NCBI GenBank assembly: GCA_963837955.1
Contig: CAWIPH010000001.1
Span: 448,001-512,000, forward strand
DNA from: an uncultured Verrucomicrobiae bacterium
GTDB taxonomy: Bacteria; Verrucomicrobiota; Verrucomicrobiia; Chthoniobacterales; JAFAMB01
Length of the DNA stretch: 64,000 bases
Reading direction: 5' to 3'
Below, piece after piece: positions 36,001-42,000 of this stretch (positions are counted from its first letter, which is position 1; every line of letters starts with the position of its first letter). The position numbers are program-made.

Positions 36001-39000
36001 GGGGCATGATCAAAATTAAAATACCTGCCACCAGGGCAATAATAGGACCAATTTGAATCGAAATAAGTGCCGCTAGAATATCCATTGTTTTTTTTCTCCG
36101 AAATTTCGGGGGCGTCTTAGCAGAAGTATTCGGCTTAGACAAGCACGAGTGGAAGCGCCGGCAACGCCGAGAGCGCCGAAAGCGCAGATATATTGCATCC
36201 CCTCCTCACTTCCAGAGCTTGCGTTTTTGAGTCCGTACCGCTACCAGGAGAGGGCATCTGGCGTTTCAACATCGATGACCCAAACGAGCGCAGCATGAAT
36301 ACCTCGGCTCGGTATAAATACCTCGACAGGCTCGGTATGAATATCTCGGCAAGCTCGACATGAACACCTCGATAAGCTCGGTATGAAAAACGATCTGACC
36401 GGCCACGCCCTTACGCCACTGAAGCTAGGGGTTTATAGTTTGGGGGCGTTGGCCATGAATCTGGCCAACCTCGTACTCACCGAATGGTTCTACGAGCGCT
36501 ATGTGGTTGGCGGCGTGATAAGCACAATCGTCTTCTCGATCATTATTTTGGCGGGGCGTATCACTGATGGCGTTTCAGATCCGTTTCTAGCCTATTGGAC
36601 TGATAGTACGCGAAGCCGCTGGGGTCGACGGATACCGTTTCTTCTTTTTGGCACGTTGCCCTTCGCGATCGTCTCGTTTCTCCTCTGGGTGCCCCCTCAA
36701 GACGCTAGCGAAGGGATCCGGATCGCTTACGCAGCCATTCTGGCTCAGGCTTATTTCTTACTTTACGGATTGGTGGTTACCCCTTATCTGGCGCTGCTTC
36801 CCGAGATCGCCGGCTCGACCAACGATCGTTTGAATCTCACCACCGGACAAGGTGTAGCAGCCCTGGTAGGTACGCTCTGTTTCGCGTTTGCTGGTTTGAT
36901 TGTGCAGCATGCAGGCTTTGTCGGTCTTGGTGTGATGGTAGGTGTGGCGATTTTGATTTCCTATTATCCGATTCCCTTTGTGATATCGGAGCGAGAACAC
37001 AGCGCTGGTGGGAAAGCGTCACTCAAGGTGCTATTCCAGTGGATCAGAGATGTGGTAGGAAACCCAACTTTCTTGCCGCTTCTTATTTCCACGTCGCTCT
37101 ACTGGTTCGCATTAAACCTGTTATTGATGTTGGTCCCGCGTTGGGTGCAGGTACAGCTGGGAATGGAGAAGGACGCCGTGACTTGGCTCATGTTGCCCTT
37201 TATCGCCGTGAATCTGGTAGCGTTCTTTCTATTTAATTGGTTAGCAAAACGGATCGGAAAGTATCGCAGCTTCCTTTGCGTATTTGCTTTGACCGTCCTG
37301 GTATTCGCATTAGTCGGCCTTTCCGATCGAATTCAGGTTGGGCTTCCTCCATTCGTCGTCGCCCAGTGTATTGTTGGATTGGCCGGCGTCCCGGTCGGAG
37401 GTTTTGGGGTCCTGGCGTTTGCTTTGCTGGCCGACGTGATCGATGAGGACAGCAATCGGCGCCGGCTCCATAGGGAGGCGATCTTTTTCGGAGTCCAAGC
37501 CATCTTTCAAAAGTCGACGATTGGTCTTTCGGCTGTAGCATTCGGCTGGCTGCAAACGCTTGGATCCAGCCAAAGTTTCCATGGGTGTGCCTATCTGGCT
37601 GCTGCGGTCTGCCTGGCCGGTCTGTTCGCTTTCGCCAGGTTTCCGATGAAAGGGTAGGGTGAAACAGATCCGGCGAAGGCAGGATCTGTGAGCCTGGAGC
37701 AGCGGAGTAATGGAACGGTACCGGCTCCGCGCCGGTGCTCCGGAAATATTGGGGTAGCGGGATCCCGCAGCCGCGCGGGACCGCTACCAATACGCCAAAC
37801 GCGTCGTCAGTCCTTCGGTGCCAATTCAGCTAACAGCTTCTCGTACCGTGGATCTTTCCGAAGCGGTTCCCAATATGGATCACACTTTAGTTGGCCGTAG
37901 AAAACACCGTTTGGCACCTTGGTCAAAGAACTCAATTTCTCAAAGGCTAGGTCCAATTCATTGGCCCAGGCATAAACAACAGCTAGATTCAACTCCAAGC
38001 ACGGGCCGGCCAGCGCGTCCTTGGAGATCGGCAACAGTTCGACAGCACGTTTGGCTTCCGAGATGGCTACTTCTCTGTTGTTGAGCAGGGCATCCACCAC
38101 TGCCAACTGGCTAAGCAGTTTGGCATCTCCTTGTGACTTCTGGACCTTCTGGTTTAATTGTTCTCGCGTCTCAACAAAGCTGGCGTTTAAACCAGGTTGT
38201 TCTCCCTGGAGCCGGGCGAGGAGGATGGAATAACAACCGACCGGCACATTTATCTGTCCGTAAGCAAAGTCGCCTTCGTCGTCGCCGCCCTTCATCTTTT
38301 CGATCACTTCTTTCGCTTGCGGCCAATCACGATCAACCAAGGCGAACCCCAGTCGCAAAGAGAGCGCACCTCTGTCGTCGGCCATGGATGCCGGGAGCGT
38401 TGCGATCGCAGCCCGGACCGCGGTGTCATCTCCGGTCCTATAAAAGGTTACGAACAGTGGCTTTTGGGCCTTGAGTATCGGCTCGTCTGGACGGAGCTCG
38501 ATCAATCGGTCGAACATCTCCTCGGAGGCACGAAACTGACGTGTGAAACAAAGGGTAAAAGCCAACTCTTCAATGAAAACCGAATTGTGCGGATCCCGCG
38601 TGATTGCTTCGTTGAACTCCTGGATTGCTTTTTCGAATTGCCCCTGCCGCCGATCGATGAGCGCTTCGAGCGCGATCGTCTCGGCGTCGTTCGGAAGGCC
38701 GTGTCTGGCAATGGCTAGCTGTACTCGTGCCCGCTCATAATCATGATAGCCGCGGTAGAGGTGGTACGCGTACGTCCGATGAACCTCGGGCAGGTCCGGT
38801 TGCAAACCCAATGCGCTGTTTACCGCTGCATCTCCCAAGGCGCGTTGCTCTGGAGTTGGATCGTACAAGTAATAGAGGAGATCGTGCGCTTGTGCCAATG
38901 CACAGTAGGCGAGGACGAACTTTGGATCCAGCCGGACGGCTTGCTCCAGAAAATTGACAGCGTCGATCAGCGGTTTCTCGACATCTCCAAAGGTCATAGA

Positions 39001-42000
39001 AACGTGAACGCTTACCAGTAACTCCTTGGCCCGGAGGTAGAGATCGTAGGCCTCGAGATTCTCGGTTGGTTTCTTTTCGATACTCCGCTTTTCTTCCGGG
39101 GAAAGCGTTGCAGCTAGTTTGGTGGCGATGGTCTGAGCTACTTCGCTCTGGATCGCGAAAATGTCGGTGAGATCGCGATCAAAACTGTCGGCCCAGGTGG
39201 TCTTATCCTGGCGAGCGTCGATGAGTTCGGTGCTGACCCGAACCCGGTTTCCGTTCCGGCGCACGGTTCCTTCCAAGACATTGGCTACACCCAACGCATT
39301 AGCGATCTGGCGTAGATCGCGTTTCTCGTCGGCACGATATTGCATGACCGACGTGCGGCTGATAACCGTCAGTTGAGCAACCTTGGCCAGGTTGTTAAGG
39401 ATCTCATCCTGAACACCGTCAGCGAAATAAGTGTCGTCTTTATTCGCGCTGATGCTTTCGAAAGGCAGTACGGCGATGCTTTTTGCCGGAACAGCAATAG
39501 CCGAAGCGATCGAGTCATTCGCTTTGTGAGTGTTTGCGGCGAAGAACCAGAGAGCGCTGGCTATGATAGCGGCTGCACCGACCAGACAAGCCACGAGCAG
39601 CCAGCCTCTCCGCCTGGGTACCATTGCTCTTGGTGACTCCGGTTCCTTTTCAAGAGTGGACTTGCCGGCGACACCTTGATCTTTGCCATCCTCCAGCAAC
39701 CGTTTTATCCGCTCCGTTAAAACCGCGAGATGTGGCTGTAAGGGTGGGGTGCTCGCGTCCAGCCAATGGACGGTCTCCAAAAAATAGACAAGACTATCGC
39801 GGGGGACAACCGCCTCGGTCCGGAACGGAATCACTGCTAGACCCAGAGAGAAGGCTCTAGCCATTTCACGCCGAACGTGCTCCGAGTCGTTGGCGTGGGC
39901 GGAAAACACCAGAACGAAAACGCGGCAGCGGGTAATGCCCGCCATGATACCTTCGGTCCAATCGGATCCCACTTCGATGTCGCGAGGAGCGATCCAGCAC
40001 CGGATGCCGGCCGATTCCAGCTGCCTGCAAATAGCATCTGCAACCGCTTTGTCCTTGCTGGAATGGCTGATAAAGACCTTGGGCTCCATACGGTAGCAGG
40101 AGCGTTGTAGTCGATTCAGTGACCGATGGCGAGCGGAAGCGGCAGTGCAGAATCGATCCCGAAGGGGAGGGCGCACGTCCTCGTGCGCCGCGGATCGCGA
40201 GGACGCGATCCCTCCCCCGGGGCAGAGAACCAGACTCCGTCTTTATGTTGACGCACATGGGACGGCCGAACGCAAGTTCCCGGCGTTCCCGGCGATGACG
40301 GCGTTCCCGGCGTTTTTCGTTCCTACCGTTCAGAGGGACTCAATTCGTAGACTGTGCCGCTGTAGTCGTCCGAGATGAACAATGACTTGCCTCCGGCCGC
40401 CGGTTTCACGTCCACAGGACGACCCCAAATCCGTTGCGATTGGTCGTCCAACCAACCGGTGACCAAGTCAGTCTGGTTACCGGGCCGCTGGCTGGTCCAC
40501 GGAAAGATGACCACCTTGTAACCGGTCTTTCGGCTTCGATCCCATGAACCGTGGTACGCGACTGCGGCGGAGTTCCGCAACCATTCCAGCAGCTTTGTCT
40601 CCTGCAAAAACGCCATCCCAAGCGGTGCTGAATGAGCCTGGATGCCCTTATCGCTAAGCGTGAACTTCGAATCCGGATATTTGCTCCAATCCGCATTGGT
40701 TTCGTAGTTCGGGTCGAGCGGCATATTATCCAAACCGCTCGGGCCGTCAGGGTCTGGTTCAGCGAACGGCCATCCGTAGTCCGCACCCGATTTAACATGG
40801 ATGAATGTGTCCGGAGGATGGTCATCGACGTAGCTCGTAATTCGTTTGCCGTAATCGTCAGAGCCGCTTCCTTTCCAGCTTCGGTGGAATGGAAACCGGA
40901 TCTCGTCACTTCCGTTGACCACTGCCCATAACGCGTTGGTGCCGGGAAGAAAACCGAGGCCTTCCGCGTTCCGAATGCCTTTCGCGAACAGGGACCGGTT
41001 TCCGCCATCCAGATCGTAACGGTAAATGGCACATCGAATCGGATCGCTGGTGGTGTCTCTCGGATCAGCATTGGTCGATGAAGCGATGTCCACGTAGAGA
41101 TGATGGTCTGGGCCAACCGCTAAGTTCTTCAATTCATGGCGATAGGCCCCGCGGAGTTCCGGGCTGCTCGTATCGGGCAGGTTCGGTACGATAACCTGTT
41201 TTTGGAGCAAGGCGTGTTTGTCGGAATCGTAGAGGAACCGGCTAATCTCGTTGGATTCACCGACGTACACGTAGGTCTTGCCTCCGATCGCGGTAAAAAC
41301 CATTCCATGCGGTTGCCGCAATCCGGAAACGGCGACCACCGGTAGAGTTGCATCAGAAGACGCAACTGAGACCCACCAAATCCTACCCCTCGAAGGCTGA
41401 GAAACGAGGAGACCACCATCCGGTGTGGAGGCGAGAAAGCGGGCCGCCGGAATCCGGGCGATGACTCGGATCTGAAAGCCATGCGGGACTTGCAGATACC
41501 GGTCCTGATCGAACGGGGAGGATCGAAGTGCAGCGGGAACGGCAACCTTCTCCGAGCCCAATTGGGTTTCCCCGTAGCTCGGTTGGAGCGCAACGAGAAA
41601 AAATGCTGGAGCAACGAAGATTAGAGCAAAAACAGCGAGCCTGTTCATGAGATCATTACTTAGCTGTGGTTGGAATAAGTCTTTCCGGATCGGGTCTACT
41701 TAATTGACAAACAATAACCCTGTTCGAACTGATAATTATATGTCCTTTGCGCAAGGTGCTCTGGGTTTTCGCGTTCTATTTTGTATTGTTCTGTCCTTTG
41801 CAGCGCACAGGTTGCTTGCGGCCGATCCATCGTCGGTCACTGGTCTTTGGAAAAACGAAGACGGCTCGTTCGAGGTTTACGAGGAGAACGGAAAACTGTC
41901 GGCCAAGATCGTCAGCTTACGCGAGCCGCTCACTCCGGAGGGGAAAGAAAAACTCGATATTCACAATCCGGACGCCAGCAAACACAGTCGTCCAATCATT

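Follow-up and report, generated by a model that had tools for sequence, protein, structure and literature searches.

The window, a stretch of 64,000 nucleotides from an uncultured Verrucomicrobiae soil bacterium, encodes a 760-residue protein in which an N-terminal TIR domain is followed by one putative membrane helix and an outer part of 575 residues with the predicted fold of the periplasmic CadC sensor (Table 1). We lean slightly towards reading it as a one-component transmembrane receptor, in which a sensor with ligand-controlled self-association would switch on a cytoplasmic, NAD+-cleaving TIR enzyme. Work on bacterial TIR domains has treated them almost exclusively as defence effectors in the cytoplasm. 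Our literature search found no published description of the TIR-sensor family, and as far as the literature found goes, a layout like that of Toll-like receptors (TLRs), with a periplasmic sensor and a TIR domain, is new for bacterial TIR proteins. According to a 2024 survey of TIR systems in E. coli, bacterial TIR systems seem to lack the membrane and repeat features of TLRs (PMC11350192).

Table 1. Coordinates in the window of the gene and its parts (residue numbers refer to the 760-residue protein).
Feature	Position	Strand	Basis
Whole gene, protein P0001	37807..40089	-	ORF list and translation
TIR domain, residues 5-113	39751..40077	-	Pfam TIR_2 PF13676, E 8.7e-24
Glu75 codon, catalytic-type glutamate	39865..39867	-	Checked on translation
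Ser69 codon	39883-39885	-	Checked on translation
Polar linker, unconserved, residues 136-163	39601..39684	-	Mean column conservation 0.35 (125 full-length relatives)
Putative transmembrane helix, N-terminus inside, residues 164-185	39535..39600	-	Hydropathy and K/R counts
Alpha/beta sensor subdomain, residues 203-339	39073..39483	-	AlphaFold2 model and fold matches
Helical (TPR-like) subdomain, residues 345-531	38497..39057	-	AlphaFold2 model of residues 186-560
Helical repeats beyond CadC-like core, residues 532-700	37990..38496	-	TPR_19 to residue 538; helices in earlier model
C-terminal cap, residues 701-754, NCBIfam TPR_END_plus	37828..37989	-	NF047558, E 1.6e-12

The gene given in the initial annotation is a real open reading frame of 760 codons and a stop. 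Its ATG at 40089 is likely to be the start codon; all paralogues share the protein start M-x-x-K/Q-V/I-F-I-S-H-S. The TIR_2 match (84.8 bits against a cut-off of 28) spans profile positions 1-109 of 122, places the domain at the residues first proposed, and is followed by a conserved helix that ends near residue 135. Pfam finds TIR_2 alone in residues 1-135, with no Trans_reg_C match at E up to 1. The linker that comes next is the least conserved part of the protein, with 14-32% identity among paralogues, and ends in the basic stretch P-R-R-R-G-W.

The sole strongly hydrophobic segment (residues 164-182) has a Kyte-Doolittle 19-residue maximum of 2.45 and is preceded by four K/R in 15 residues and followed by one, in the sense of the positive-inside rule. 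Because hydropathy and charge bias agree, and the fold relatives of the alpha/beta half are all envelope proteins, we infer a receptor-like topology with the N-terminus inside and the outer part in the periplasm. Among the sensors classed below, a membrane segment separates output and module in all 21 TIR-type proteins, 19 of 21 kinases and 35 of 37 cyclases. The module had been described as periplasmic throughout, but five of ten cyclase-type proteins in the wider library have no hydrophobic segment between cyclase and module. As these soluble cyclases carry it, the module is not intrinsically periplasmic.

The AlphaFold2 model of residues 186-560 (pLDDT 91.9, pTM 0.88) superposes on E. coli CadC (3ly7) with a VIA Z of 23.7 and an rmsd of 3.7, covering 303 of the 322 residues of 3ly7, and the top four Foldseek matches are all CadC (TM-score 0.69-0.70 on target). 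As modelled, the alpha/beta and helical subdomains together correspond in fold to the whole CadC periplasmic sensor domain. The alpha/beta subdomain (pLDDT 88.3) matches TolB 1c5k at Z 14.6 (rmsd 2.9, 132 aa) and CadC 3ly7 at Z 10.4, and a profile search of solved structures gave FlgO at E 0.018; its predicted fold is TolB-N/FlgO/PelC/LpoB-like. Conservation within the protein is highest in this subdomain (0.86), which is 80-99% identical among paralogues. The TPR repeats assigned earlier to the outer part are confirmed by Pfam matches at residues 377-538. Residues 532-700 are 53-82% identical among paralogues, and the cap, with the motif D-P-x-W-x-P-L-R-x-D-P-R-F/Y, scores 47.2 bits against a cut-off of 32.

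Two assignments by orthology were rejected. The NCBIfam CadC model NF007540 matches residues 161-404 (E 2.9e-6), but its 26.4 bits lie far below the equivalog cut-off of 400. The TolB equivalog reaches 30 bits against 343, over profile positions 22-150 of 418 alone; the propeller part of the profile is unmatched and the remaining outer part is helical in the AlphaFold2 models.

The sensor module (residues 186-345) matches 82,880 library representatives at E up to 1e-3. The family motifs I-A-V-L-P-F, F-A-D-G and V-I-S-R-T-S, then helical repeats and a TPR_END cap, all occur in the 760-residue protein, which by sequence belongs to the 'TolB-like protein' sensor family, as JGI names module-bearing kinases and cyclases. 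TIR_2 is present in 112 of the 120 best database clusters and TIR-type sensors in at least seven other sampled Verrucomicrobiota genomes; the family is common in soil Verrucomicrobiota. In the ESM Atlas, clusters of 51-882 members, some mainly from Pseudomonadota, provide a lead.

From this genome and related ones, 131 distinct sensors were sorted by N-terminal part with local HMMs. They comprise cyclases (37), bare modules of three transmembrane helices (34), TIR (21), Hanks kinases (21), others (9) and sequences cut short (9). A FastTree phylogeny built from just the sensor region (122 rows) requires at least 31 changes among the four main labels, cyclase, bare module, TIR and kinase. The TIR label needs five changes, at least four of them forced by well-supported branches. 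The nine-row TIR clade of this genome is joined by four kinases, one encoded in this genome, in a clade of 13 rows with support 100. The tree supports the view that a single sensor family feeds several interchangeable cytoplasmic outputs, among them TIR. The initial annotation had counted three such outputs; the swapping is borne out, but the number is not, since the bare three-helix module and a FecR-type DUF4880 also occur, so that the N-terminal states recognised by sequence exceed three. Copies of the module joined to cyclases turned up independently of Cya3. Separately, the N-terminus of one ORF (L033), which has no membrane helix before the module, looks winged-helix-like by eye only and has no Pfam match.

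Within this genome, as proposed, the post-helix module recurs in four Hanks kinases (40-79% identity over residues 186-345), and the alpha/beta half is 80% identical even to one kinase paralogue. The close TIR paralogues number five, this protein and four further full-length ones of 751-829 residues. Three are 62-79% identical to it over the whole length; the 829-residue one is 83% identical over residues 163-760, 66% in the TIR domain, and has three membrane segments, so the single helix first ascribed to all holds for the 760-residue protein and not for this one. A plan common to seven proteins likewise applies to five: the two distant members, encoded in tandem at C2:2033277-2037538, consist of TIR, membrane helix, a Pro-rich spacer and ten TPRs and lack the alpha/beta module.

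A profile built from 19 TIR sequences matches Cat1, TIR-STING, TLR6, PdTIR, AbTIR and SARM1, and the nearest solved sequence relatives are Cat1 (1.5e-10) and TIR-STING (3.9e-9). Glu75, in S-E-H-V-R-R-E, aligns with the glutamate of W-x-x-E(L) in Cat1 (9mud), TIR-STING (6wt6) and TLR6, in line with its earlier designation as catalytic-type. Both Glu75 and Ser69 are invariant among the 19 sequences, and the glutamate also in a second alignment of 14 sequences with identities down to 27%. It is present in 20 of 21 TIR-type sensors as extracted; the 21st extract is cut, and its glutamate was read from the separate 14-sequence alignment. The sensor is fused to two distinct TIR subtypes, and both retain the residue. 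Judged from the alignments, it appears necessary but not sufficient for assigning NADase activity, because TLR6, to our knowledge not an NADase, has the aligned glutamate too. The loop after strand B, which reads E-V-G in place of the family consensus x-P-G, counts against an enzyme.

An alternative is a non-enzymatic scaffold, in which TIR-TIR contacts, as in animal TLR and adaptor signalling, recruit other TIR proteins or another partner. A profile alignment shows the loop motif R-D-x-x-P/V-G after strand B and the helix S-x-W/H-x-x-x-E to be shared with TLR1/2/6 and MyD88. In each of the 10 TIR_2 ORFs of the genome a hydrophobic helix follows the TIR domain, so that all 10 products are probably anchored in the membrane, where they could come into contact. 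We nevertheless consider a scaffold improbable: the closest solved relatives are TIRs of enzymatic or enzyme-like type, two subtypes keep Glu and Ser without exception, and a sibling protein, its TIR 75% identical to that studied here, carries the genome's only DUF4326 on the same cytoplasmic side. This domain is proposed, in one passage of a published analysis, to process phosphates of ADP-ribose derivatives (PMC9503650); the pairing points to NAD+-derived nucleotides. A search of the NADAR and Macro families for a receptor of a TIR product found none, with no NADAR match and one ordinary Macro protein (SLOG and SAVED lay outside this search).

Hanks kinases, class III cyclases and TIR domains all have to dimerise or oligomerise in order to act. 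Part of a study of CadC describes its linker as intrinsically disordered, and its periplasmic domain and membrane helix as mediating a dimerisation on which activity depends (PMC5430869). Because the CadC fold is shared, CadC activity needs dimerisation and the outputs act as dimers or oligomers, self-association is the switch we infer. A CadC-type sensor extended by helical repeats would sit in the periplasm, tethered by one helix and a floppy linker to the cytoplasmic TIR domain. A periplasmic cue (ligand, pH or envelope partner) would alter sensor self-association and gather the TIR domains together; the assembled TIRs would cleave NAD+, giving an ADP-ribose-type nucleotide signal or a local NAD+ drop. 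Alternatively, the cue could lead to a cut in the linker or helix, the freed TIR acting in the cytoplasm without self-association as the switch. The long, polar, unconserved linker would suit this, and a passage on CadC reports a cleavage-dependent activation route (PMC11484849), but neither a protease partner nor a cleavage motif was seen, and the kinases and cyclases that share this sensor do not have to be released; we regard proteolysis as very unlikely.

The five paralogues each stand alone among unrelated genes, as was claimed for this one and as expected of a self-contained receptor. Their flanks show no defence genes, mobile elements or shared neighbours, and Pfam found no SIR2, SLOG or Macro gene in the 28 adjoining ORFs. 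PADLOC gave, as stated before, only generic, weak TIR matches and called no defence system; Thoeris was rejected, with no ThsA-type gene adjoining and weak matches to ThsB models. These observations bear on an anti-phage or anti-invader role by abortive infection, in which damage to the envelope, or some component of a phage, is sensed by the outer part, and NAD+ depletion by the TIR domain stops the infected cell. TIR domains typically serve as effectors in defence, there are weak matches to the TIR models of PADLOC, and one new E. coli anti-phage TIR system has a transmembrane segment, according to part of its description (PMC11350192). The solitary settings, the lack of a PADLOC call, a high conservation of the alpha/beta half unlike that of fast-evolving defence sensors, and the use of the same sensor by kinases and cyclases make such a role unlikely. 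Tentatively, the proteins could instead be receptors of non-defence TIR signalling, periplasmic cues gating TIR enzymes that make ADP-ribose-derived second messengers.

A whole protein family sets TIR behind a probably periplasmic CadC-type sensor, in the place taken by kinases and cyclases in paralogues. If the reading as non-defence signalling is true, TIR would join Hanks kinases, nucleotide cyclases and membrane-bound transcription factors as a fourth type of one-component transmembrane output, and the protein would be a bacterial counterpart, in layout, to TLRs; the TIR-DUF4326 sibling would combine maker and breaker of that signal, as GGDEF-EAL does for c-di-GMP. The system is a clean one for asking whether TIR serves as a regulated signalling enzyme outside immunity and whether proximity alone suffices to activate it, and it offers an entry point to a family of sensors that is very large and so far unstudied.

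With the bacterial NAD+-cleaving effectors Cat1, ThsB, AbTIR, TIR-APAZ of SPARTA and TIR-STING, the protein shares the TIR_2 fold family, the glutamate of the W-x-x-E helix and the serine six residues before it. Those effectors have cytoplasmic sensors (CARF, STING, Argonaute, or phage cues with ThsA) within defence loci, whereas here the sensor is probably extracytoplasmic and the gene lies alone with no conserved partner. Animal TLRs also combine extracytoplasmic solenoid repeats, one membrane helix, a cytoplasmic TIR and the R-D-x-x-P-G loop motif. However, TLRs are type I proteins (N-terminus outside) with LRRs, whereas here the N-terminus would be inside, the TIR domain is N-terminal with no signal peptide-like segment before it, and a CadC-like domain with TPR-like helices is found, with no LRR matches in Pfam; there is no evidence that the whole architecture descends from a common ancestor.

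E. coli CadC (3ly7) and other ToxR-like one-component receptors share the single-pass, N-in layout proposed here and the periplasmic alpha/beta and helical sensor, and the disordered cytoplasmic linker of CadC has its parallel in the unconserved linker here. CadC differs in its OmpR-type winged-helix DNA-binding domain in place of TIR; sequence identity is about 14%, and here helical repeats and a TPR_END cap lengthen the sensor by about 230 residues. The fold of residues 203-339 recurs in the TolB N-domain, FlgO/FlgT, PelC, LpoB and CsgG, with marginal sequence similarity and here neither beta-propeller nor lipoprotein signal. X. citri PknS, described in part of one report as having a periplasmic TPR-rich region (PMC13147305), possibly bears the same sensor, a likeness by description only. 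In receptor Hanks kinases and class III cyclases the membrane helix is likewise followed by this alpha/beta module, helical repeats and the C-terminal cap; their sensors intermix with those of the TIR proteins on the tree, and it is the output enzyme that differs.

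The gene under study encodes a TIR protein with a single predicted membrane helix and lies in a region of unremarkable G+C content. A GTG-initiated frame would extend it at its 5' end, but the ATG at window position 40089 is the likely start because paralogues and relatives all begin at M-x-x-K/Q-V/I-F-I-S-H-S. Hydrophobicity peaks at 2.45 in residues 164-182, the sole strongly hydrophobic segment, with four Lys/Arg in the preceding 15 residues and one after it. From this segment and its charge bias, the TIR is predicted to be cytoplasmic and the 575 residues beyond the helix to lie outside. 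Residues 161-549 gave weak, sub-threshold NCBIfam matches to CadC, HilA, TolB and 'peptide modification system cyclase'.

Coordinates of the features discussed (window, position in the 64,000-nt stretch; C2, one of the two contigs of the genome under study; L, locus; res, residues of the 760-aa protein)
Feature	Location	Strand	Size	Details
Studied gene, open frame	window 37807-40089	-	760 codons	ATG at 40089
GTG-initiated longer frame	extends to window 40176	-
TIR_2	res 5-113			Pfam, E 8.7e-24
TPR families	res 377-538			Pfam
TPR_END_plus cap	res 701-754			NCBIfam, above cut-off
Upstream neighbour	window 40323-41648	-	441 aa	signal-like N-terminus
Paralogue with 3-helix module	L003:5348-7837	-	829 aa
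Paralogue before 60-codon frame	C2:3709480-3711786
60-codon frame	C2:3711915-3712094	-	60 codons
TIR-TM-Tll0287-TM-DUF4326 protein	C2:3339585-3341396 (L009:5086-6897)	+	603 aa
Pkinase-TIR-TM-beta-helix protein	C2:3551009-3554941 (L010:5010-8915)	-	1301 aa	Hanks kinase; TIR 568-676
Tenth TIR protein	C2:3166310-3168868 (L012:6311-8869)	-	852 aa	TIR 472-576; helix near 702

The outer part resembles the periplasmic domain of CadC in AlphaFold2 models. Residues 186-345, modelled from 36 relatives (pLDDT 88.3), fold like the N-terminal domain of TolB (1c5k: Z 14.6, rmsd 2.9, 132 residues), with LPHT/FlgT rings, PelC, LpoB and CsgG as the next matches; the periplasmic domain of CadC matches through its first subdomain at Z 10.4. 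The longer model of residues 186-560 (28 relatives; pLDDT 91.9, pTM 0.88) aligns with the entire CadC periplasmic domain (Z 23.7, rmsd 3.7, 303/322 residues; VIA), CadC 190-511 falling on model 11-346. The top TPR-only protein reaches Z 18.6, and Foldseek ranks 1-4 are all CadC entries (TM-score 0.69-0.70 on target). Profile searches of solved structures did not retrieve CadC: the alignment of residues 186-560 found TPR proteins only, and that of residues 186-345 marginal matches only (CcmE 0.0045, FlgO 0.018, PelC 0.1). The case for a relationship to CadC is thus made by the fold together with the weak NCBIfam match, and common descent of the two domains is likely but not proven. The protein scores below the cut-off for CadC orthologues and has no DNA-binding domain; a reading as a TolB homologue was rejected, as it has no propeller. 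A complex prediction with two copies of residues 186-560 scored 0.00 and weighs neither way.

The assembly (two contigs, 5.62 Mb) holds four further full-length paralogues, three of them 79, 66 and 62% identical to the studied protein across the whole length. The fourth, of 829 residues, is 83% identical over residues 163-760 and 66% within the TIR. The initial annotation had given all of them a single helix; this describes the studied protein but not the 829-residue paralogue, which has three membrane segments. The additional ones are similar to a 3-helix module with the conserved sequence F-F-x-E-L-K-R-R-x-V-Y..., placed here between TIR and sensor. Directly after another paralogue, a 60-codon frame encodes only the family's C-terminal motif (...D-P-Y-W-D-P-L-R-K-D-P-R-Y-D-K-L-L-A-E-L-A-P-K-D) and is probably the remnant of a further paralogue.

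The genome has ten TIR_2 reading frames, and all TIR proteins of the organism are membrane-anchored, with the TIR ahead of a predicted helix. Two had been listed as more distant members of the same plan; they are encoded by tandem genes and have a TIR-TM-TPR arrangement with ten repeats and a Pro-rich spacer, which has the topology of that plan but lacks the alpha/beta module and so the sensor. The 603-residue protein has a C-x-x-C-H motif in its middle sensor, which is Tll0287-like and haem-type (PF11845). The TIR of this protein shares 75% identity with the studied one, and its DUF4326, on the cytoplasmic side, is the only one in the genome. The 1301-residue protein has one membrane helix after the TIR and, outside, a NosD-like right-handed beta-helix; kinase and TIR also stand on one chain in a relative from another genome (L042). 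The tenth TIR protein has no domain assigned in its N-terminal 470 residues, and its Pro/Ser/Thr-rich tail ends in His/Arg.

The alpha/beta module alone matched 82,880 representative clusters at E <= 1e-3 and 56,079 at 1e-10. Among the best 150 matches, a Pfam scan of 49 (all single-copy proteins of at least 500 residues, plus shorter two-copy ones) found the N-terminal domain to be Pkinase in 11, Guanylate_cyc in 10, TIR_2 in 3 and DUF4880 in 1; none was found in 24, several of which are truncated gene calls or carry an N-terminal anchor alone. A hydrophobic segment directly follows the cyclase in five of the ten cyclase types and is absent from five, which indicates that the module also functions in the cytoplasm. 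Some database proteins (P0123-P0131 and others; 1,200-2,800 residues) hold two to seven module copies, each apparently followed by TPRs, and are either tandem sensors or merged gene calls.

As initially annotated, the module is common to four Hanks-type kinases of the genome, where it follows a membrane helix (40-79% identity over residues 186-345). Sensor-linked Hanks kinases (loci L005-L008; database proteins P0164, P0176, P0189) also begin with a zinc-ribbon-like motif, C-x-x-C ... C-x-x-C, that precedes the kinase domain. Local HMMs divided 131 distinct sensors, drawn from Verrucomicrobiota-dominated loci as well as the genome itself, into cyclase (37), 3-TM only with no cytoplasmic domain (34), TIR (21), kinase (21), other (9) and cut short (9). 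The module preceding the 34 bare sensors (L020, L028, L029, L031 and 30 others) is the 3-helix one. Output and module are separated by a membrane segment in 21/21 TIR, 19/21 kinase and 35/37 cyclase types.

A FastTree phylogeny built on just the sensor region (122 rows after exclusion of nine short ones, midpoint root, SH-like support) requires at least 31 changes among the four main labels. The TIR label needs five, at least four of them forced by well-supported branches. Shuffled labels never gave as few changes as observed, although kinship alone could cause that. The local TIR clade of nine rows is nested with four kinases, one of them from the genome under study (13 rows, support 100). 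Opitutales-type genomes make up a second TIR clade, and one TIR protein is placed among cyclases (support 100). The proposal that TIR is one of several interchangeable outputs of one sensor family thus agrees with the swapping seen on the tree.

A profile of 19 TIR domains matches Cat1 (1.5e-10), TIR-STING, TRR2, TLR6, PdTIR, AbTIR and SARM1, as well as 9m0n, an 824-residue TIR-TPR protein. In this alignment the Glu of the W-x-x-E(L) helix corresponds to E75, as had been proposed, and the Ser six positions before that Glu to S69. Invariant positions are F6, I7, C31, W32, A34, P35, G41, I48, L60, S69, E75, A79, P88 and W109. E75 is also invariant in 14 full-length proteins with identity down to 27%; in a MAFFT alignment the Glu occurs in 20 of 21 TIR-type sensors, and the 21st, shortened by extraction, shows it in the 14-protein alignment. 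These 21 fall into two subtypes, ...S-x-H-V-x-R-E... and ...G-Y-F-R-x-E-W.... TLR6 has the same Glu, which warns that the conserved residue does not by itself prove catalysis.

Among 125 full-length relatives, mean column conservation is highest in the alpha/beta subdomain (0.86), followed by the TIR (0.75), the helical parts (0.68-0.70), the membrane helix (0.44) and the linker (0.35). Paralogues are 80-99% identical in the alpha/beta subdomain, which is still 80% identical to a kinase paralogue, 49-84% in the helical part and 14-39% in the linker. When the studied gene is compared with two paralogues (L001, L003), identical residues use the same codon in 82-84% of cases for the alpha/beta part and 68-78% for the other parts of the sensor, versus 39-51% for the TIR. 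This difference indicates that the sensor half underwent recent gene conversion or recombination among three paralogues, and points to mosaic genes with a likely break near the linker or helix. The remaining two paralogues and the kinase match in 28-53% of codons in all regions, yet alpha/beta amino-acid identity stays at 80-86%, which indicates strong purifying selection on that part. We take the alpha/beta half to be in contact with something invariant and the helical half to carry specificity.

The studied gene is flanked by a convergent MFS_2 transporter gene, and its same-strand upstream neighbour has no Pfam match at E <= 1e-6. Other paralogues adjoin SRAP, GlgC/GlmS, a CitMHS transporter, methyltransferases, a catalase-like gene, a P450 and a sugar-binding protein. 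The view that the neighbours are unrelated holds: by Pfam, the flanks of the five paralogues have no gene in common and no defence gene. PADLOC likewise gives generic TIR matches only, and Thoeris and other named defence systems were rejected as their partner genes are missing. Promoter and terminator predictions across the region were no more numerous than in shuffled controls.

A whole-protein search gave 7,994 matches among 8,000 scored candidates; among the matches listed, 112/120 contain PF13676 (identity 62-90%); they come from Chthoniobacterales/Verrucomicrobia MAGs, where they are called 'TIR domain-containing protein' or 'TolB-like protein'. At E <= 1e-20, at least 26 of 401 evenly sampled genomes of the phylum have a match, a lower bound without copy numbers, as two candidates were scored per genome. 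Pfam on 25 matching reading frames found TIR_2 joined to the sensor in eight, from seven other genomes, and also one TIR-FGE-sulfatase and one TIR-kinase protein. A related-locus search with the single protein, whose peptide patterns were too specific, returned five relatives; repeated with the 14-protein alignment on species-representative genomes, it found the full-length TIR type in 3 of the 74 best sensor loci. TIR_2+TPR clusters in ESM Atlas, with 51-882 members and in some cases dominated by Pseudomonadota, are a lead only.

Kinase, class III cyclase and TIR outputs all act as dimers or oligomers. For TIR this is described in PMC10899771; PMC5430869 describes CadC activity as dependent on dimerisation, which the periplasmic domain and helix mediate, and the linker as disordered. 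The simplest common logic of the outputs would be a cue-controlled self-association module, by which proximity, in the studied protein, would assemble a putative NAD+-cleaving TIR enzyme. DUF4326 is proposed to process ADP-ribose derivatives (PMC9503650); its presence on one chain with a 75%-identical TIR favours a role in NAD+-derived nucleotides over one as pure scaffold. The outcome would be either a messenger or NAD+ depletion; a search of the genome for receptors of a TIR product, covering the NADAR and Macro families, found no NADAR and one ordinary Macro gene.

In the literature covered, which excluded most subscription journals and supplements, we met no TIR joined to this sensor, no bacterial TIR with this topology, neither 'COG5616' nor 'TolB-like' as terms, and no paper for PDB codes 9M0N and 9UMD. 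According to a 2024 survey (PMC11350192), bacterial TIR systems seem to lack the membrane and repeat features of TLRs. The architecture thus draws on known kinds, TIR effectors and ToxR-like one-component receptors, in a combination for which we found no description. Compared with CadC, the studied protein adds about 230 residues of helical repeats and an end cap beyond the CadC-like core.
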